Shown piece after piece: positions 12,523-52,550 of a stretch of 64,000 nucleotides of DNA (position 1 is the first letter of the stretch; each line of letters begins with the position of its first letter). Source of the stretch: Escherichia coli (GTDB taxonomy: Bacteria; Pseudomonadota; Gammaproteobacteria; Enterobacterales; Enterobacteriaceae). The DNA lies in assembly GCF_024502345.1 (NCBI RefSeq), contig NZ_JALDNN010000001.1, one strand, 5' to 3'. Position numbers and translations under genes: made by a program. Under the pieces are notes generated by a model. It searched no databases. It was not told the origin of the DNA and saw only the letters and a program-made list of their open reading frames with translations.

Positions 12523-12779
12523 TCTAAAATCCTCGGAGATGTGATCTGCCCGGCATTAAACCGCACAGATATAAAAGTGAAAAAGGGGGCCATATGCAGG
12601 CCCCCTAACCAAACGTGTACTACCTGGTCTATAAGGGCTCTCCCCCTTCATATTTCGCGCCGCAGATGCGTTATCTTCGCTCGCTCATCCCGGTCACTTA
12701 CTGATGTAAGCTCCCGGGAATTCTCGAGCTTGCCGCCTTTCTGCAACTCGAACTATTTTGGGGGAGTTATCAAGCCTTA

Positions 12780-13727
<948 letters not shown>

Positions 13728-20356: not shown

Positions 20357-21781
20357 TTACTGCATTAACAGGTAGATGGTGCTGTCGCCGCGCTGAATGT
20401 TCAGTGCCAGCACAGACGGTTTGCTGTCGAGAACTTTACGCAGTTCAGCGATGTTTTTCACTGCCTGCTGGTTCGCGCCAATAATCACATCACCTTTCTT
20501 CAGGCCGATCTGCGCAGCCGGAGTGCCCGTTTTCACGTTGTTCACTACCACGCCCTGATCTTTGCCTTTGTTGCTCATTTCAGCACCTTCAATGCCGTTG
20601 AAGATGGAGCTGGAATCAACCTGATTCTGGCTGCTCTGCTGCAGTTCCAGATTCACGTTGACCTGCTTACCGTCGCGCAGCAAGCCCAGGGTCAGTTTGC
20701 TGCCCACCGGCATAGTACCCACCTGAGCACGCAGTGCGGCAAAGCTGCTGATTGGCTTACCGTTCAGTGAGGTGATCACATCACCCGCTTTAATGCCCGC
20801 TTTTGCAGCGGAGGAATTAGGCAGAACCTGGCTTACGAAAGCACCGCGCTGGGTGTCAACTTTCATCGCTTTCGCCAGTTCGGAATTCAGCTCAGTCCCC
20901 ATAATACCCAGCTCACCGCGTTTCACCTGGCCGTATTCCACCATCTGCGAGGTCAGGTTTTTCACCATGTTGCTCGGGATAGCAAAACCGATACCGATGT
21001 TGCCGCCGTCCGGTGCGAGGATCGCGGTGTTGATACCGATCAGTTCGCCGTTCAGGTTAACCAGCGCACCACCGGAGTTACCACGGTTGATCGCTGCATC
21101 GGTCTGGATGAAGTTTTCGTAGTTTTCGGCATTCAGGCCGCTACGCCCCAGCGCAGAGACAATCCCGGAAGTTACCGTCTCTCCCAGGCCAAACGGGTTA
21201 CCAATCGCTACGGTGTAATCACCCACGCGCAGTGCATCAGAATCCGCCATCTTAATTGCGGTCAGGTTTTTCGGGTTCTGGATCTGAATCAGCGCGATAT
21301 CAGAGCGCGGATCTTTGCCAACCATCTTCGCGTCGAACTTACGACCATCGCTCAGCTGGACTTTAATCACCGTCGCGTTATCAACAACGTGGTTGTTGGT
21401 GACGACATAGCCTTTATCGGCATCAATGATGACGCCGGAACCCAGCGCCATGAATTTCTGTTGCTGGCCGCCGCCATTACCGCCCTGGCCCCCCTGGCAG
21501 AACGGAGAGCTCTGGAACGGTGAACCTTCCTGGCAGAACGGAGAATCATCACCGAAGAACTGCTGGAAATTACGCGGCATACGCGGCGTATTAACGGTTG
21601 TGCTACCTTCTACGTTAATGCTGACCACTGAAGGCATCACCTTTTCGAGCATCGGTGCAAGGCTTGGCATCTGCTGGGCTGTCGTTGCTGAAGAAGTCTC
21701 AGCCGCCGTTGCAGAGAGCGGAGATAACGCCAAACCTAAACTCAGAGCCAGTGCACTCAGTGCTAATGTGTTTTTTTTCAT
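20357..21781 (-). CDS. degP: periplasmic serine endoprotease/chaperone DegP (HtrA)
   Basis: 474-aa ORF with signal peptide, trypsin-like catalytic motif GNSGGAL and two PDZ regions. Confidence 0.97.
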   Translation of the reverse strand: MKKNTLALSALALSLGLALSPLSATAAETSSATTAQQMPSLAPMLEKVMPSVVSINVEGSTTVNTPRMPRNFQQFFGDDSPFCQEGSPFQSSPFCQGGQGGNGGGQQQKFMALGSGVIIDADKGYVVTNNHVVDNATVIKVQLSDGRKFDAKMVGKDPRSDIALIQIQNPKNLTAIKMADSDALRVGDYTVAIGNPFGLGETVTSGIVSALGRSGLNAENYENFIQTDAAINRGNSGGALVNLNGELIGINTAILAPDGGNIGIGFAIPSNMVKNLTSQMVEYGQVKRGELGIMGTELNSELAKAMKVDTQRGAFVSQVLPNSSAAKAGIKAGDVITSLNGKPISSFAALRAQVGTMPVGSKLTLGLLRDGKQVNVNLELQQSSQNQVDSSSIFNGIEGAEMSNKGKDQGVVVNNVKTGTPAAQIGLKKGDVIIGANQQAVKNIAELRKVLDSKPSVLALNIQRGDSTIYLLMQ

Positions 21782-21826
21782 GTATTTCAGTCTCGATTAA
21801 CAGATAACGCAAAATTGCTGTGTTCT

Positions 21827-44759: not shown

Positions 44760-45238
44760 CAGTTGCGTATATTGCCATAGGCAGCAATCTGGCCTCTCCG
44801 CTGGAGCAGGTCAATGCTGCCCTGAAAGCATTAGGCGATATCCCTGAAAGCCACATTCTTACCGTTTCTTCGTTTTACCGCACCCCACCGCTGGGGCCGC
44901 AAGATCAACCCGATTACTTAAACGCAGCCGTGGCGCTGGAAACAACACTTGCGCCTGAAGAATTACTTAATCACACACAGCAAATAGAGTTGCAGCAAGG
45001 TCGCGTTCGTAAAGCAGAACGCTGGGGACCGCGCATACTCGATCTTGATATCATGTTGTTTGGTAATGAAACCATTAATACCGAACGACTCACCGTCCCG
45101 CATTACGATATGAAGAATCGCGGCTTTATGCTGTGGCCGCTGTTTGAGATTGCCCCGGAACTCGTGTTTCCTGATGGGGAGACATTACGTGAAATACTCA
45201 CTTCGCTAGCAGTACTACAACCTGCCATCTGGTATTAG
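44756..45238 (+). CDS. folK: 6-hydroxymethyl-7,8-dihydropterin pyrophosphokinase FolK, variant C-terminus
   Basis: 160-aa ORF matching HPPK through about residue 140 (…[13 protein letters not shown]) and then diverging from the K-12 tail as recalled. Confidence 0.9.
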
Positions 45239-45519
45239 CTGTATTATTTTATTTTCTTATCTTACTCCTCACTTCCCCTCTTACAGATTAAATATACTTA
45301 ATTTACATTTTAGTTTTTTTTAATTAATTCATGAAATAGCACTTCATGCAAATAGATTAGGCATTTTTTGTTTAAAAAACCTAGAATAACAACAATTCAA
45401 TACACCACGTAAATATATTCACACAAGTGATACCTCTCCCCCTATTACATCCTTCCCCGACTTTAAGTAATATCCGCTCGCAATATTAATTTCGTATAAT
45501 TTTTGTAAGGATGCATGTA

Positions 45520-46116
45520 ATGAAAAAAGCACTTCTCGCAGCCGCTTTAGTAATGGCTTCTGGTTCCGCCTTGGCTGTAGATGGTGGTCATATCGACTTT
45601 AACGGTATGGTACAGTCCGGTACCTGTAAAGTGGGTGTGGTAGATACCGGTATGCACAGCGTTACCACTGATGGCGTGGTTACCCTGGATACTGCGAATG
45701 TTACTGATACTTTTACTGAAGTAAGTGCAACTGCTGTTGGTTTACTGCCGAAAGAGTTCATGATTTCTGTTGAGTGTGATCCAGGTGCTCCGAAGAATGC
45801 TGAGTTGACTATGGGTTCTGCAAGCTACGCGAACACCAGCGGTACCCTGAATAACAATATGAACATCACTGTTAACGGTATTGCACCGGCTCAGAACGTG
45901 AACATTGCAGTTCATAACATGAAAAACAAAGCTGGCGCTGCTGAAATTAAGCAGGTCCATATGAACAACTCTTCTGAAGTTCAGGAACTGACATTAGACG
46001 CAGAAGGTAAAGGTCAGTACGTGTTTAACGCATCTTACGTTAAAGCACCGAACAGCCCGGCTGTTACTGCTGGTCATGTAACCACTAACGCACTGTACAC
46101 CATTGCTTATAAATAA
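45520..46116 (+). CDS. yadN: fimbrial major subunit (YadN-like, chaperone-usher pilin)
   Basis: 199-aa product from the ATG at 45520 (signal peptide MKKALLAAALVMASGSALA; an SD-like TAAGG lies 9 nt upstream); C-terminal pilin strand …YTIAYK; first gene of the operon. Confidence 0.8.
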   Translation: MKKALLAAALVMASGSALAVDGGHIDFNGMVQSGTCKVGVVDTGMHSVTTDGVVTLDTANVTDTFTEVSATAVGLLPKEFMISVECDPGAPKNAELTMGSASYANTSGTLNNNMNITVNGIAPAQNVNIAVHNMKNKAGAAEIKQVHMNNSSEVQELTLDAEGKGQYVFNASYVKAPNSPAVTAGHVTTNALYTIAYK

Positions 46117-46202
46117 TTAATGGTGTGTTGAGCATAAGGTTTGCCGCCAGGCAGACCTTATTTTCGCTAATTTAATCTTTCTACAGACAGCAAGGAGTGC
46201 TT

Positions 46203-46928
46203 ATGTTTCCCTTGGTTAAAAAAACGGTTAGTGCATTATTTGTAAGTACTCTGTTAGCCAGTGCGCCTGCATTCGCTGACATTATTATTTCCGGAACTCG
46301 TATCATTTATAACGCTGATAAAAAAGATGTTAACGTTCGTCTGGAAAATAAAGGGAATCGCCCCTTACTGATTCAGAACTGGTTGGATACTGGCGACGAC
46401 AATGCCGATCCCAGCCAGATCAAAGTGCCATTTACCTCTACGCCGCCTGTTTCACGCGTTGAGCCAAAACGCGGTCAAACCGTAAAAGTGATGTACACCG
46501 GTGCAACAGCCCTGCCTAAAGACCGGGAAAGTGTCTACTGGTTTAACGTGCTGGAAGTGCCGCCTAAGCCGAAAGATGCTGAGTCTGACAAAAACTTATT
46601 ACAATTGGCTTTCCGCACACGCATCAAACTCTTTTATCGCCCGAGCGGTTTACAGGGAGAACCGGCTGAAGCACCGGCGAAAATCACCTGGAAATTAAAC
46701 AACGCTCAGTTACAGGCAAATAACCCAACGCCATATTACGTGTCCTTTAATGAGGTCAAGCTGGAAAGTGGCGGCAAAACCTACAACGTCAATTCCAGCA
46801 TGGTCGCGCCGTTCAGCCAGGCAAGCTTTCGCGTAACCGGTCTACCAGGAAGCGTTTCATCCGGGAAAGTGATCTTTAAAGCGATCAACGACTTTGGCGG
46901 CAACATCGATGGTTCCGCAACATTGTAA
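46203..46928 (+). CDS. yadV: fimbrial periplasmic chaperone (PapD-like; EcpD/YadV-like)
   Basis: ATG at 46203 preceded by AAGGAG at 5-nt spacing; PapD-like chaperone sequence with the conserved block WFNVLEVPPKP…LLQLAFRTRIKLFYRP. Confidence 0.85.
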   Translation: MFPLVKKTVSALFVSTLLASAPAFADIIISGTRIIYNADKKDVNVRLENKGNRPLLIQNWLDTGDDNADPSQIKVPFTSTPPVSRVEPKRGQTVKVMYTGATALPKDRESVYWFNVLEVPPKPKDAESDKNLLQLAFRTRIKLFYRPSGLQGEPAEAPAKITWKLNNAQLQANNPTPYYVSFNEVKLESGGKTYNVNSSMVAPFSQASFRVTGLPGSVSSGKVIFKAINDFGGNIDGSATL

Positions 46929-46969
46929 AAAATAAACGGATTCTTTTTAACATCGCCAGGAATGCAACC

Positions 46970-49570
46970 TTGTACCAGTTTACTCATCAAATAAGCCGTA
47001 TCCCGAAAAAAACGCTACTTGCGGCCTGTTGTGCCCTGTTTTATAGCAGCAACGGTGCTGCGGCAGACACGGTGGAATATGACAGTTCCTTCTTAATGGG
47101 AACTGGCGCATCAACGATTGATGTTAAACGTTATGCTCAAGGCAACCCGACACCCCCGGGCCTCTATAATGTCCGCGTGTTTGTAAACGGTCAGGCGACG
47201 TCCAGCTTAGAAATTCCGTTTGTGGATATTGGCGAAGCCAGCGCAGCGGCCTGTATTACCCACAAAAACCTGGCGCAACTCCACATAAAGCAACCTGAAC
47301 AGCCTGTCACTTTACTCGCCAGAGAAGGTGAAGAAGAGGATTGTCTGGATTTGGCAAAGTCATACGAAAAGGCGGATGTGCGCTTTGACGGCAGTGACCA
47401 GTTTCTCGATCTGACTATTCCTCAGGCCTATGTTCTGAAAAACTACGGTGGTTATGTCGACCCCTCACTGTGGGAGTCAGGGATTAACGCTGCCACACTG
47501 GCATATACCCTGAACGCCTATCATACAAGTTCAAATAACGACAATAGTGACAGCGCCTATGGCGCATTTAACTCAGGTATCAATTTAGGAGCCTGGCACT
47601 TCCGTGCGCGCGGTAACTATAACTGGACAACAGATAACGGCAGCGATTTCGATTTCCAGGATCGTTACTTACAGCGTGACATTCCGGCAATCCGTTCACA
47701 GATAATTATGGGTGATGCCTATACCACCGGTGAAACATTTGACTCTGTCAACGTCCGCGGCGTTCGCCTGTACAGCGATAGCCGTATGCTGCCTTCGGCG
47801 CTGGCCAGTTACGCTCCGACCATCCGCGGTGTAGCAAACTCCAACGCCAAAGTCACCGTGACGCAAAGCGGTTATAAAATCTATGAAACCACCGTACCAC
47901 CCGGTGAATTTGTTATAGACGACATTAGCCCCTCCGGCTTTGGTAGCGAACTGGTCGTGACCATTGAAGAAGCGGATGGTTCCAAACGCACCTTTACGCA
48001 ACCCTTCTCGTCGGTTGTACAAATGCAACGTCCTGGTGTGGGCCGTTGGGATTTCAGCGCGGGTAAAGTCATTGATGACAGTCTGCGATCCGAACCCAAT
48101 ATGGGACAAGCCTCTTATTACTATGGTCTGAATAACCTCTTCACGGGTTATACCGGTATTCAGTTCACCGATAATAACTATCTTGCCGGGCTGTTAGGTG
48201 TGGGTATCAACACCAGCATCGGTGCCTTTGCGGTAGACGTTACCCATTCCCGTGCTGAAATTCCGGATGATAAAACCTACCAGGGGCAAAGTTATCGCGT
48301 GACCTGGAACAAATTATTCCAGGATACCGGGACATCATTTAACCTCGCGGCGTACCGCTATTCCACCCAAGATTACCTGGGCCTGCATGATGCGTTAGTC
48401 CTCATTGACGACGCCAAACATTTGTCTGCCGATGAAGACAAAAACACCATGCAGACGTACTCACGTATGAAAAACCAGTTTACCGTCAGCATCAACCAGC
48501 CGCTGAAAACGACTTACGAAGATTACGGTTCACTGTTTATTTCTGGTAGCTGGACGGATTACTGGGCGGCGAACAATAGCCGCACTGAATATAATGTTGG
48601 TTACAGTAAAAGCGTTTCGTGGGGCAGTTTCAGCGTCAACCTGCAACGTAGCTGGAATGAAGACGGCGAGAAAGATGACGCGATGTACGTCAGCGTTAGC
48701 GTACCTATTGAGAATATTTTAGGTGGCAAACGTAAGTCTTCTGGTTTCCGCAATTTAAATACTCAGCTCAATACCGATTTCGATGGTTCACATCAGTTGA
48801 ATGTTAACAGTTCCGGTAACACTGAAAACAATCTGGTGAACTACAGTGTCAACGCAGGTTATAGCCTCGATAAAAACTCCGGCGATTTAGCCTCTGTTGG
48901 TGGTTATCTCAACTATGAATCAGGGTTAGGCGGTATTTCCGCTTCGGCCTCGGCCACTTCGGATAACAGCCAACAGTACTCCATCTCCACCGATGGAGGC
49001 TTTGTATTACACAGTGGTGGTTTAACGTTCACTAACAACAGTTTCAGCAGTAACGACACGCTGGTGTTAATCAACGCCCCAGGTGCTAAAGGCGCACGAA
49101 TCAATAACAGTAATAACGAAATCGATCGCTGGGGATATGCCGTGACGTCCTCTGTCAGCCCCTACCGTGAAAACCGGGTAGGTCTGAACATTGAAACACT
49201 GGAAAACGATGTTGAACTGAAAAGTACCAGCGCCACCACCGTACCACGTAGCGGCTCCGTTGTTTTGACCCGGTTCGAAACTGACGAGGGGCGTTCTGTC
49301 GTGCTGAATATTACTGCCGCCAATGGCAAATCTATTCCGTTTGCTGCGGAGGTTTACCAGGATGACGTGATGATCGGCAGCATGGGCCAGGGTGGTCAGG
49401 CATTTGTGCGCGGTATTAACGACAGCGGGGAATTAATCGTGCGTTGGTATGAAAACAACCAAACCATTGACTGTAAGTTGCACTACCAGTTCCCGGCCCA
49501 GCCACAAACGCTGGGAAGTACCAACACCTTATTACTTAATAATCTTACCTGTCAGGTAGCAAATCACTAA
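46970..49570 (+). CDS. htrE: fimbrial outer membrane usher (HtrE-like)
   Basis: 866-aa ORF, TTG start, usher-family length and sequence blocks (…RMLPSALASYAPTIRGVANSNAKVTVTQSGYKIYETTVPPG…). Confidence 0.88.
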   Translation: MYQFTHQISRIPKKTLLAACCALFYSSNGAAADTVEYDSSFLMGTGASTIDVKRYAQGNPTPPGLYNVRVFVNGQATSSLEIPFVDIGEASAAACITHKNLAQLHIKQPEQPVTLLAREGEEEDCLDLAKSYEKADVRFDGSDQFLDLTIPQAYVLKNYGGYVDPSLWESGINAATLAYTLNAYHTSSNNDNSDSAYGAFNSGINLGAWHFRARGNYNWTTDNGSDFDFQDRYLQRDIPAIRSQIIMGDAYTTGETFDSVNVRGVRLYSDSRMLPSALASYAPTIRGVANSNAKVTVTQSGYKIYETTVPPGEFVIDDISPSGFGSELVVTIEEADGSKRTFTQPFSSVVQMQRPGVGRWDFSAGKVIDDSLRSEPNMGQASYYYGLNNLFTGYTGIQFTDNNYLAGLLGVGINTSIGAFAVDVTHSRAEIPDDKTYQGQSYRVTWNKLFQDTGTSFNLAAYRYSTQDYLGLHDALVLIDDAKHLSADEDKNTMQTYSRMKNQFTVSINQPLKTTYEDYGSLFISGSWTDYWAANNSRTEYNVGYSKSVSWGSFSVNLQRSWNEDGEKDDAMYVSVSVPIENILGGKRKSSGFRNLNTQLNTDFDGSHQLNVNSSGNTENNLVNYSVNAGYSLDKNSGDLASVGGYLNYESGLGGISASASATSDNSQQYSISTDGGFVLHSGGLTFTNNSFSSNDTLVLINAPGAKGARINNSNNEIDRWGYAVTSSVSPYRENRVGLNIETLENDVELKSTSATTVPRSGSVVLTRFETDEGRSVVLNITAANGKSIPFAAEVYQDDVMIGSMGQGGQAFVRGINDSGELIVRWYENNQTIDCKLHYQFPAQPQTLGSTNTLLLNNLTCQVANH

Positions 49571-49571
49571 T

Positions 49572-50132
49572 ATGGAAAATTCTATGAAAAGGATACTACT
49601 AACATCCGCGTTAATAGGCCTGGGTTTACCGGCGGTTGGCTCTGCAACAGATCTTAATGTCGATTTTACGGCCACCGTATTAGCCACCACCTGCACGATA
49701 ACTATCGTACAAGATGGTGGCCCAGTAGTGACGGGTAGTAACGGTGAATATAGCCTGACAATTCCCGATGTTGGCCTGGATAAAGTTATAACTGGAGATG
49801 TTGCAGCTCAAGCCAACTTTAAATTACTGGCTTCCGATTGCAGCAATGGTTACTCAAAGATTTTTACCACACTTACAGGTGCATCTGTTTCAGGTAAGTT
49901 GATTGTCAATGAAGCAAGCTCTGGCGCTACTGGTGTGGGTATGGGGATTAAGCGTAGAGATACCGCAGACTCAACTTTCTTTACACCCAATAATACTGAC
50001 AAATTTGAATGGACCACCGATGAGAAAGCTAACGGTGTGCCTCTAACCGTAGCACTGCGCGAAACAACGGCGGGAGCAGGACGCACCGGTGCGTTTCAGG
50101 CAAAAGCCACCTTTAACTTCACCTACGAATAA
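49572..50132 (+). CDS. yadM: fimbrial minor subunit (YadM-like)
   Basis: 186-aa ORF with signal peptide, a Cys pair and C-terminal …ATFNFTYE pilin donor-strand motif; second ATG at 49584 possible. Confidence 0.78.
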   Translation: MENSMKRILLTSALIGLGLPAVGSATDLNVDFTATVLATTCTITIVQDGGPVVTGSNGEYSLTIPDVGLDKVITGDVAAQANFKLLASDCSNGYSKIFTTLTGASVSGKLIVNEASSGATGVGMGIKRRDTADSTFFTPNNTDKFEWTTDEKANGVPLTVALRETTAGAGRTGAFQAKATFNFTYE

Positions 50133-50146
50133 CAGGGACAGCCACC

Positions 50147-50758
50147 ATGAAATTAAAAGTCATCGCTACACTGATTGCCACTGTTGCCGTGGGTGCCAGC
50201 GTTAGCAACAATCTCGCTTATGCGGGTACGACATCCGCCTCTTTAACCGTAAACAGTAACCTGACTATGGGTACCTGTAGTGCGAAGATACTGGATACCA
50301 GTGATACCGTGACCGATACCGTTGCCTTTAACAATGTTTATATTTCTGAACTGGCAGCCAAAAGCAAGGTACAACCATTTAAAATCCGTTTCAGCGATTG
50401 CGCCGGTCTTCCAGGAAAAAGTGCTCAACTCGTATTGGCACCCAAAGGTATCGGTTGCGCTGGCGGCATGTCTAACACTGCCGGCTTTGCAAATAAACTT
50501 AACTCCACCACCGAAGGTGGTTCAAGCGGAGCAGCTGTCGAAGTATGGACGACTACGACCCCCGGGGGAAGTGGCAGTAAGCAATTCAGTTGCATTCAGC
50601 GAAACGTCGTCAATGTCGATCTTTCTAATGCCAGCACAACACAGCCTTATGATTTCGATTTAAGCGCGCGGATGATTCTCGCTGAAGGGAGAACGGTTAA
50701 TGATGCATTACCGGGTAGTTTCCTCTCTCCTACGACTTTCACAATCACTTATCAGTAA
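50147..50758 (+). CDS. yadL: fimbrial minor subunit (YadL-like)
   Basis: 203-aa ORF with signal peptide and C-terminal …TTFTITYQ. Confidence 0.78.
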   Translation: MKLKVIATLIATVAVGASVSNNLAYAGTTSASLTVNSNLTMGTCSAKILDTSDTVTDTVAFNNVYISELAAKSKVQPFKIRFSDCAGLPGKSAQLVLAPKGIGCAGGMSNTAGFANKLNSTTEGGSSGAAVEVWTTTTPGGSGSKQFSCIQRNVVNVDLSNASTTQPYDFDLSARMILAEGRTVNDALPGSFLSPTTFTITYQ

Positions 50759-50778
50759 TAGCGGATAAGGATATTAGA

Positions 50779-51369
50779 ATGCTATGCAGGCATCATAAAT
50801 TTGTACGCTTTTTGGGGCTGGTAACAGCCCTCGTTACGCCTTTTGCCTATGCTGGCCAGGATGTGAATCTCACCGCGCAGATTGTGGCCAGTACCTGTCA
50901 GGTTGAAGTCAGTAATAATGGCGTTGTCGATCTCGGCACAGTGACGCTGGACTATTTTGCTGACAATGTGACCCCGACAACGGATTATGCGGGTGGCAAA
51001 ACGTTTAATGTTAATGTGGTCTCTTGCGATAACATTCAAACGACACAGTCGCAAATGAAATTAGATTTTCAGCCGCAGGCGGGATCGCTTGCGCAGGTGA
51101 ATAATCAAATTTTTAGTAATGAATATGAACAGCAGGCTACCGGGGCGAAAAACGTCGGCATTGTGATATTTTCGGCCCAGCCGAATCAGCAGACATTTAA
51201 CGTGCGAGGAACGGATGGTTCCTCAACAGCAATTTATTCGGTCGCGCCTGGCAACGCTGCTCCCTCAACCTGGACCTTTTATTCCCGTATGCAACGGGTG
51301 AATAATGCCCTTCCTCCTGAATCGGGAATGGTGAGAAGCCAGGTTATTGTTAATGTATCTTATGAATAA
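50779..51369 (+). CDS. yadK: fimbrial minor subunit (YadK-like)
   Basis: 196-aa ORF; SD-like TAAGGA 7 nt upstream; C-terminal …VIVNVSYE. Confidence 0.78.
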   Translation: MLCRHHKFVRFLGLVTALVTPFAYAGQDVNLTAQIVASTCQVEVSNNGVVDLGTVTLDYFADNVTPTTDYAGGKTFNVNVVSCDNIQTTQSQMKLDFQPQAGSLAQVNNQIFSNEYEQQATGAKNVGIVIFSAQPNQQTFNVRGTDGSSTAIYSVAPGNAAPSTWTFYSRMQRVNNALPPESGMVRSQVIVNVSYE

Positions 51370-51380
51370 TAAGGATAATT

Positions 51381-52493
51381 ATGCAAAGGAAAGGCAATAA
51401 ACTGTTAATTCAGTTATGCAGTGCGATACTGCTATTTTTTACCACATCCTGGTATGCATTGGCGACTGAATGTTATATAGAGAGCAATGCTGCAGGGGCT
51501 TATGATATTGTTATAAACCCAACTCCCTTCAGTATACAGTCAGCGATGGTCACAGTCCCGGAGGAAATATCTTTCGCGGCCTCGGATGTTCATATTGACC
51601 TTCGAGGGGATAAGATTGGCTGTAAATCCTTAGGTAGTAACACAAGCGCGGTACATTTTCTTAATACTGCTGATGCCAGTAACATATCTACCTACACTGA
51701 CAGTCACGGTAATGGTTTATTGAAAACAACCGTTACGGGTATTGTTTATTCAGTAGAATTACAATGTAGAAATTGTGGAGCCGCGGAGGATCTTAGTTTG
51801 ATGCTTCCAGCACAAAGCGGTGGAGATAATCATACAAGCAACTCTGATACAAAGTGGGCCTATGAGTATAGTGACGATAGCTGGTATTTACGATTTCGTT
51901 TTTTCTGGACCCCGGAATATAAACCCCAAAATGGGGTTTCAGAAGGATTTGCGATACCAGGTAAAATAGCCTCCTGGTATATAGGCAATGAGAATCAACC
52001 ATGGATAAATTTTTTCGTTGATACAAGCTCCCTGCATTTTTACGTGGAGGAACCCACCTGTCAAACAGTTGCCCTGGCACAAGATCAGGGTAATGTCAGC
52101 GGCAACCAGGTAACGCTTGGGAACAACTATGTTTCGGAAGTGAAAAATGGGCTTACGCGGGAAATTCCTTTTGCCATCCGCGCTGAATACTGTTATGCCA
52201 GTAAGATTACGGTTAAGTTGAAAGCGGCAAATAAGCCCAGCGACGCCACTCTGGTAGGTAAAACAACGGGCTCTGCTTCAGGCGTGGCTGTAAAAGTGCA
52301 TTCAACTTACGAAGACAGCAAAGTATTGTTAAAAGCAGATGGTAGCAACACGGTTGACTACAACTTCGCAATCTGGTCAAACAACCTGCTGAATTTGCCC
52401 TTTACGGCACAGTTGGTACCGGATGGCAGTGGTAATGCAGTCGGTGTTGGAACATTTTCAGGAAACGCGACCTTCTCCTTTACCTACGAATAA
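51381..52493 (+). CDS. yadC: fimbrial tip adhesin (YadC-like, two-domain)
   Basis: 370-aa ORF: N-terminal Cys-containing putative receptor-binding domain plus C-terminal pilin domain ending …ATFSFTYE; last gene of the operon. Confidence 0.75.
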   Translation: MQRKGNKLLIQLCSAILLFFTTSWYALATECYIESNAAGAYDIVINPTPFSIQSAMVTVPEEISFAASDVHIDLRGDKIGCKSLGSNTSAVHFLNTADASNISTYTDSHGNGLLKTTVTGIVYSVELQCRNCGAAEDLSLMLPAQSGGDNHTSNSDTKWAYEYSDDSWYLRFRFFWTPEYKPQNGVSEGFAIPGKIASWYIGNENQPWINFFVDTSSLHFYVEEPTCQTVALAQDQGNVSGNQVTLGNNYVSEVKNGLTREIPFAIRAEYCYASKITVKLKAANKPSDATLVGKTTGSASGVAVKVHSTYEDSKVLLKADGSNTVDYNFAIWSNNLLNLPFTAQLVPDGSGNAVGVGTFSGNATFSFTYE

Positions 52494-52516
52494 GTAAAAC
52501 GTCATTCCCTCCTCAT

Positions 52517-52550
52517 CGCACCAGAGTTCTGCTCTGGTGCGAACGTTTTC
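52517..52550 (+). terminator. putative terminator after the fimbrial operon
   Basis: Hairpin CGCACCAGAG-ttct-GCTCTGGTGCG followed by AACGTTTTC. Confidence 0.45.

Follow-up and report, generated by a model that had tools for sequence, protein, structure and literature searches.

A fimbrial operon of the O157:H7 class, distinct from K-12 Yad, at the folK-panB site of Escherichia coli

Introduction

The chaperone-usher fimbriae of Escherichia coli called Yad are encoded between folK and panB, and Wurpel et al. treat them as one core-associated type, which they equate with the Salmonella Sta fimbriae at the same locus (PMC3559732). The Yad class of O157:H7 has been annotated and studied experimentally, including genetically, and is assigned to the γ4 clade (PMC7098969, PMC11287998), an assignment that the literature also gives to Yad of K-12 and uropathogenic E. 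coli (UPEC). In Table 5 of Archer et al., strain Crooks has "ECs0145-ECs0139" replacing yadN-C (PMC3032704), and according to a 2026 survey, in which Yad means at least 80% identity to the usher HtrE of EC958, phylogroup E lacks Yad and phylogroup D has few (PMC13245861). The ligands described for the K-12/UPEC adhesin YadC are xylose (cited in PMC13245861) and annexin A2 (PMC6921372). Here we analyze the operon at positions 45520-52493 of a 64,000-nucleotide stretch of E. coli DNA (contig NZ_JALDNN010000001.1; the whole stretch is called the window below), which a preliminary description had taken for an allelic yad variant with a shorter tip adhesin.

We find that this operon is not derived from that of K-12 and belongs to the O157:H7 ECs0139-0145 type (locus 2), and that three or more operon classes, deeply diverged from one another, occupy the folK-panB site in E. 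coli. Gene content, intactness, protein families, folds, class relations and frequencies make us confident that it is a functional-looking chaperone-usher operon of the O157:H7 class. It is a real, ordinary operon and opens no new kind of biology: the class is already known, annotated and partly characterized, although its name lumps it with the K-12 type, the YadL and YadC alleles are already present as identical RefSeq proteins, and only the rare combination of this YadL with this YadC lectin domain is uncharacterized. The analysis is chiefly useful for annotating such operons correctly and for judging where function can be transferred; the label "yad" is attached to operons whose adhesins have no recognizable receptor-binding domain in common.

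A complete chaperone-usher operon between folK and panB

The operon consists of seven open reading frames:

45520-46116, + strand: yadN, major pilin, 198 amino acids
46203-46928, + strand: yadV/ecpD position, PapD-like periplasmic chaperone, 241 amino acids
46970-49570, + strand: htrE position, outer-membrane usher, 866 amino acids, TTG start
49584-50132, + strand: yadM position, minor pilin, 182 amino acids
50147-50758, + strand: yadL/StaE family, hypervariable minor pilin, 203 amino acids
50779-51369, + strand: yadK position, minor pilin, 196 amino acids
51381-52493, + strand: yadC, two-domain tip adhesin, 370 amino acids

All seven frames are intact across 7 kb, the gaps from yadN through yadC are 86, 41, 13, 14, 20 and 11 bp, and a Shine-Dalgarno sequence is recognizable at most of the seven starts. 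The preliminary description had reported co-directional, tightly spaced, intact genes in the order and position of K-12 yad, and our reading agrees with it on both counts: as in K-12, pcnB-folK lies upstream and panB-panC downstream, and the genes run pilin, chaperone, usher, three minor pilins, adhesin. In FDAARGOS_944, whose locus is 99.9% identical to the window, the RefSeq annotation has the identical seven gene models, and the window proteins are 99.6-100% identical to its entries. Because all product types of a chaperone-usher system are found, the product set is complete.

Each of the seven products begins with a hydrophobic, signal-peptide-like N-terminus ending in A-x-A or similar when read by eye, as the preliminary description had also seen. 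The five pilin-type products end in F/Y-x-Y-E/K/Q (YTIAYK, FNFTYE, FTITYQ, VNVSYE and FSFTYE). The term "C-terminal donor-strand motifs" previously applied to these endings is wrong, since they represent the conserved last β strand with its penultimate tyrosine; the donor strand in chaperone-usher pilins is an N-terminal extension.

Several products fall into established families. YadN matches Pfam PF00419 (Fimbrial; E 2.8e-8, residues 27-198) and, with its signal peptide and a C-terminal strand bearing the penultimate tyrosine (...YTIAYK), has the features of a major pilin; it is 100% identical to RefSeq WP_001612359.1. The chaperone matches NCBIfam PRK09926 (fimbrial chaperone) over its full length with 419.6 bits against a 285-bit cut-off, and its translation has equivalents of Arg8 and Lys112, the subunit-anchoring pair of PapD-like chaperones, in the mature N-terminus DIIISGTR and the motif RTRIKLFYRP. 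The usher has the length of about 860 residues characteristic of PapC_N / Usher / PapC_C proteins and matches PRK09828 (outer membrane usher) over residues 3-863 with 1564 bits against an 830-bit cut-off; its homologues at the equivalent position bear PF13954, PF00577 and PF13953. Among the minor pilins, YadM matches PF00419 (E 3e-15) and YadK matches PRK15262 (fimbrial-like protein; 273 bits, cut-off 132).

We do not claim that the operon is Sta, which it is related to without being equivalent. YadN scores 158 bits with NCBIfam StaA (cut-off 230) and YadM 167 bits with StaD (cut-off 228), YadL matches the StaE/YadL sub-models over its full length with at most 284 bits (cut-off 414), and the StaA, StaD and StaE cut-offs are missed by the K-12 proteins and those of Salmonella serovar Kotte as well. 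Because the window and Kotte pilins both fall under these cut-offs, the Salmonella Typhi Sta proteins behind the models appear, judging from model scores, to be a further sub-class.

The operon belongs to the O157:H7 class

The ECs0139-0145 operon of O157:H7 Sakai has the same seven genes at the same site with the same lengths, apart from an adhesin of 369 instead of 370 amino acids, and the 3′ end of folK and the region upstream of yadN are nearly identical between the two. Protein identities are 99% for YadN, 97% for the chaperone, 98% for the usher, 95% for YadK and 91% for YadM, so that in assembly machinery, major pilin, site and architecture the window operon is of the O157 type. It does not have the adhesin and minor-pilin alleles of O157, as YadL is 67% and YadC 79% identical to Sakai. 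Within YadC the difference is unevenly spread over the parts of the protein:

about residues 1-28, + strand: signal peptide
about residues 29-200 (nucleotides about 51465-51980), + strand: receptor-binding domain, 66% identical to Sakai
about residues 201-370, + strand: pilin domain, 91% identical to Sakai

A sliding comparison with Sakai locates two patches of low identity, at 50270-50664 in yadL (57-73% nucleotide identity) and at 51420-52045 in the lectin domain of yadC. The number of synonymous substitutions per site (dS) in these patches is about 0.9-2.0, reaching about 2 in the receptor-binding domain of yadC, which points to imported old alleles and not to recent mutations. YadL is 83-86% identical to that of other class members. 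The YadL and YadC alleles of window and Sakai are thus anciently diverged. The window operon is a rare sub-variant of its class that acquired the diverged alleles of YadL and of the YadC receptor-binding domain by recombination.

At the nucleotide level, identity is 91.6% to O157:H7 and O55:H7 over the full 7.4 kb. O145:H28 and a range of further strains are 93-95% identical, and 11 complete genomes (FDAARGOS_943, FDAARGOS_944, O169:H41 strains and several poultry isolates) reach 99.6-99.9%. That the source strain is of phylogroup E is only implied, by its nearest genomes.

Selection within the class differs between genes. The ratio of nonsynonymous to synonymous rates (dN/dS) is 0.03-0.08 for yadN and the chaperone and usher genes (dS 0.11-0.17), with 0.06-0.07 for the usher, so that the assembly genes are under purifying selection. 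The ratio is 0.22-0.40 in yadL and 0.13-0.50 in the lectin domain of yadC, which fits relaxed or diversifying selection plus imported old alleles. As to positive selection, a gene-wide dN/dS above 1 was found in no gene.

The operon is not a derivative of K-12 yad

Yad of K-12 and UPEC has gene order, chromosomal position and the chaperone-usher mechanism in common with the window operon. Amino-acid identities to the K-12 products, and lengths in the window and in K-12, are as follows:

YadN: 41%, 198 versus 194 amino acids
Chaperone: 61%, 241 versus 246 amino acids
Usher (HtrE in K-12): 60%, 866 versus 865 amino acids
YadM: 49%, 182 versus 189 amino acids
YadL: 41%, 203 versus 201 amino acids
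YadK: 39%, 196 versus 198 amino acids
YadC: 23%, 370 versus 412 amino acids

The BLASTP comparison with K-12 that the preliminary description had proposed thereby excludes near-identity to K-12 Yad (23-61%), and the unlike lengths and strong divergence noticed at first reading are real. Perna et al. in 2001 reportedly had yadC among the most divergent pairs of K-12 and O157 orthologues.

The usher has higher identity to its counterpart in E. albertii (89%), E. fergusonii (82%) and even Salmonella Kotte (70%) than to K-12 HtrE (60%), and the operon belongs to a separate deep class. With K-12 HtrE as a proxy for the EC958 query of the survey (PMC13245861), this 60% lies below the 80% set for K-12-type Yad. 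Megablast with K-12 htrE did not recover the window class full-length, and the Prokaryotic Genome Annotation Pipeline gives the name 'Yad fimbria usher protein HtrE' to the K-12 class only. A small neighbor-joining tree of ushers, rooted on K-12 YehB (a γ4 usher), recovers in 199 of 200 bootstraps a clade from which the K-12 class and a long-adhesin E. fergusonii strain are excluded. Its members are the window, O157, E. albertii, ATCC 8739, the E. fergusonii type with the short adhesin, Salmonella Kotte and E. whittamii. An important caveat is that our trees and distances are simple and are to be taken as indicative. The window explains how the survey can score phylogroup E as Yad-negative while others study "Yad" in O157:H7.

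Divergence from K-12 sets in abruptly within the second, 3′ half of folK and stops where panB starts. FolK itself is 90% identical to K-12 and 99% to O157 Sakai, with 160 amino acids in the window and O157 and 159 in K-12.

The 3′ half of folK (44956-45238) is a case of an essential gene that diverges along with the fimbrial class; its nucleotide identity to K-12 drops in the alignment from 97% to 84% to about 30% towards the 3′ end. SM107, O145 and ABW_A19 have the window's fimbrial class but a K-12-like 159-residue folK end. Because folK ends differ within one fimbrial class, this part of the gene contains a recombination breakpoint.

The adhesin has a receptor-binding domain of its own

Because YadC has no sequence match in Pfam or the PDB (the PDB sequence search was empty), its fold had to be predicted. 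The AlphaFold2 model is confident, with a predicted local distance difference test score of 88.2, and has a two-domain fold, which Foldseek matches to the two-domain tip adhesins FimH, LpfD, CupB6, FocH, PapG and CfaE. As in such adhesins, the N-terminal part is a receptor-binding domain and the C-terminal part a pilin domain that lacks an N-terminal extension. Structural modeling of the N-terminal domain had been suggested in the preliminary description; the model matches fimbrial receptor-binding domains and predicts a fimbrial-lectin fold of the kind seen in Abp1D, MrkD and GafD. The solved domains most like it (Abp1D 8df0, MrkD1P 3u4k, GafD/F17c 1oio, AtfE 6h1q, UclD 7mzp and LpfD 5afo) have 7-14% sequence identity to it, and the binding-site residues of solved adhesins are not conserved or identifiable in YadC; a ligand cannot be deduced from these domains.

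Sequence comparison with K-12 YadC reaches the pilin domain only. BLASTP aligns residues 201-369 of the window protein with 232-411 of K-12 YadC at 26% identity, and hhalign, with a profile from 21 homologues, aligns residues 169-370 with 191-412; identity between the pilin domains is 26-28%. The NCBIfam PRK09723 sub-models, which give K-12 YadC 885 bits, give the window protein at most 23.7 bits against a 473-bit cut-off, again in the pilin domain only, and thus do not place it in the YadC family. Since only the pilin domains align, the receptor-binding domains of window and K-12 YadC are without detectable sequence relationship. The xylose and annexin A2 data for K-12/UPEC YadC are therefore not transferable to the window adhesin. 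More generally, ligands and phenotypes of YadC from K-12, UPEC and avian pathogenic E. coli should not be assumed for O157-type operons, nor the reverse. A receptor specificity that differs from that of K-12 is plausible.

The length of the adhesin is that of its family. In the AlphaFold Database its neighbors are Sta/Stk-type adhesins of about 360-380 amino acids, and adhesins of about 405-430 amino acids match worse, with template modeling scores of 0.4-0.55. Every member of the adhesin family (from E. coli, E. albertii, E. fergusonii, Salmonella and others) has 366-376 amino acids, and the 370-residue protein is not truncated. The "shorter tip adhesin" of the preliminary description is indeed a two-domain adhesin of 370 residues; it is not a shortened YadC, as BLASTP and hhalign align the pilin domain alone.

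These results bear on whether the operon could be a K-12 yad allele that drifted by point mutation and carries a truncated YadC with a somewhat different receptor. Such an origin would suit the K-12-like gene order and chromosomal site and the distant homology of the pilin domains. We consider it extremely improbable, because the synonymous sites of chaperone and usher genes are saturated between classes (yadN dS 2.57) where pcnB dS is only 0.04 (window versus ATCC 8739), the window usher resembles that of Salmonella more than it does K-12 HtrE, the receptor-binding domain cannot be aligned with that of K-12 YadC, and the adhesin keeps its 366-376 residues in class members of four species. In this form the drifted allele is already refuted by the usher identities, hhalign, dS and the usher tree. 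Of the "allelic variant" there remains a complete chaperone-usher operon at the yad site, which represents a separate deep class and is not K-12-derived.

Several old operon classes share the site

Frequencies were counted in 5,426 complete E. coli genomes:

K-12-type htrE, at least 80% identity: about 3,780 genomes
Window's class: about 429 genomes, about 8%, of which 11 have the window variant (at least 99% identity)
ATCC 8739 (Crooks) class: about 177 genomes

The ATCC 8739 class, which is also found in E. fergusonii, has the same architecture and a 370-residue adhesin, and is a sister class of the window's (usher 81% and adhesin 55% identical). Between the window and ATCC 8739, dS is 0.04 in pcnB but about 2 in the usher.

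E. albertii, E. fergusonii and Salmonella serovar Kotte likewise have the short-adhesin operon at the folK-panB site. The Kotte operon, at the Sta locus, has seven genes in the same order and at the same site, with a 366-residue adhesin of the same family (48% identical), and with its usher (70%) and chaperone (73%) it is nearer to the window than K-12 is. One E. fergusonii strain has the K-12-class architecture at this site, and two strains of that species whose pcnB/panB dS is 0.02-0.05 nevertheless have ushers that are only 59% identical. The usher dS between window and E. albertii is 0.82, similar to the 0.46-0.76 of the flanking genes, which suggests vertical descent of the window class within Escherichia.

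These distances also bear on a recent horizontal replacement, in which homologous recombination in the flanks would have swapped the ancestral yad for an operon from another genus. The G+C content of the operon (47%, against 54% in the flanks), the sharp edges of divergence, one inside the folK 3′ half and one where panB begins, and the apparent introgression of the ATCC 8739 class from E. fergusonii all lend themselves to this explanation. We nevertheless judge it quite improbable for the window class, whose usher dS to E. albertii is about that of the flanks and fits vertical descent. Mobility genes are absent from the operon, both among the window's open reading frames and in the RefSeq annotation of the 99.9%-identical genome, and the presence of the K-12 class at the same site and with the same architecture in E. 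fergusonii makes both classes old residents.

The operons of ATCC 8739 and E. fergusonii are a separate matter. YadN is 98% and the usher 94% identical between them, and usher dS is 0.28 where the flanks have 0.6-0.7, which suggests that an ATCC 8739-type operon was transferred between E. coli and E. fergusonii.

One may go further and regard the site as an ancient, possibly balanced, polymorphism, in which at least two classes, older than the Escherichia-Salmonella split of one of them, co-segregate in E. coli and E. fergusonii with adhesin receptor-binding domains that have no detectable relationship, and in which the YadL and YadC lectin alleles are reshuffled by recombination. We offer this tentatively, as a possibility somewhat short of an even chance. 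If it is true, what the literature calls "Yad" comprises several fimbriae with distinct functions, and the rare YadL/YadC allele of the window would have a receptor specificity of its own. In any case the locus illustrates well, as a modest side result, how fimbrial classes of great age coexist within a species, and it could serve for studies of selection on adhesins.

A fourth arrangement is present in an E. whittamii-like contig (3134-10227), where an usher and a YadN that are 69% and 74% identical to those of the window stand with a 408-residue adhesin that is 35% identical to K-12 YadC. This mix indicates that adhesin type and assembly type are not strictly linked.

The fimbrial locus between folK and panB is also a frequent target of insertion sequence (IS) elements. 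The usher is broken by IS3 in JNEC-KY204 and M15, and one further matched genome has an IS3-family transposase inside the locus. In H9Ecoli, IS1 deleted the entire operon down to the final 381 bp of yadC; a partial megablast match there, to the pilin-domain half of yadC, had raised the possibility of a lectin-domain swap, which we rejected in favor of this IS1-mediated deletion.

Expression, assembly and function

Two features outside the genes are likely to matter for transcription:

45239-45519, + strand: folK-yadN intergenic region, presumed promoter and regulatory region, 281 bp, 28.8% G+C
52496-52549, + strand: stem-loop after yadC, between yadC and panB, whose 12-bp G+C-rich core (52516-52542) precedes a short run of U

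The upstream region is 96-100% identical to O157 Sakai and 57% identical, in part only, to other class members, and has a weak σ70-like match at 45358-45387. Its AT-richness and published work on yad (PMC13245861, PMC11287998) lead us to infer a promoter role and silencing by H-NS. By analogy, transcription probably starts upstream of yadN, is silenced in laboratory culture and is induced by host or stress cues. The stem-loop has a fold energy of -24.4 kcal/mol (z = -6.0 versus shuffles) and is probably the operon terminator; it was missed by the simple terminator scan, which over the operon performed at chance (9 matches versus 8.0 in shuffles).

Assembly order, expression and receptor binding we infer from the families and relatives of these proteins. 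On this basis, all seven products would be exported by the Sec pathway, and the PapD-like chaperone would cap and fold each subunit by donor-strand complementation. The usher would recruit the chaperone-adhesin complex first and then polymerize the minor pilins (YadK, YadL and YadM positions) and next YadN by donor-strand exchange. The predicted product is a thin flexible fiber with the two-domain adhesin at its tip, whose lectin-like N-terminal domain may bind a receptor, probably a glycan. Heterologous expression of ECs0139-0145 of Sakai gave thin flexible fimbriae by electron microscopy (PMC7098969).

Several observations weigh against the operon being a functional one of this class. The signal peptides were assigned by eye, without a prediction tool; YadC and YadL gave no match in a Pfam search of both proteins; and four of the seven proteins score under the nearest NCBIfam equivalog cut-offs. 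A promoter consensus scan of the operon performed at chance (10 matches versus 11.5 in shuffles), and we claim no promoter. With heterologous O157 Yad, adhesion to Madin-Darby canine kidney cells was not increased and adhesion to HeLa and Caco-2 cells was lowered (PMC7098969), so that a role in adhesion to host cells is unproven even for the closest relative. For the window operon, fiber assembly is predicted from the orthologous O157 operon, and binding from its protein families.

That heterologous O157 Yad gave no gain in adhesion could also be read as a sign that the operon is cryptic and decaying, unexpressed or unassembled, and kept by chance or recent ancestry. The silence of Yad-type operons in laboratory culture (PMC3559732) and the IS insertions and deletions at the locus in other strains could be cited for the same view. 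We hold it to be highly improbable, given seven frames intact across 7 kb, a dN/dS of 0.03-0.08 (at dS 0.11-0.17) for the genes of pilin, chaperone and usher, and the retention of intact copies by hundreds of genomes and by three further species.

Other features of the window

A short fragment of the RpnC/YadD family lies at about 54381-54560 on the - strand, immediately upstream of an intact rpnC (54659-55531). In the 99.9%-identical genome RefSeq has it as an incomplete pseudogene, whereas another strain has the matching reading frame annotated as an intact 'RpnC/YadD family protein'. Three Rfam matches exceed the gathering score, namely the small RNA CssrA (12585-12694, - strand), t44 RNA (13533-13619, - strand) and the thermometer in the 5′ untranslated region of HtrA (21776-21821, - strand), all of which are expected in this chromosomal region.

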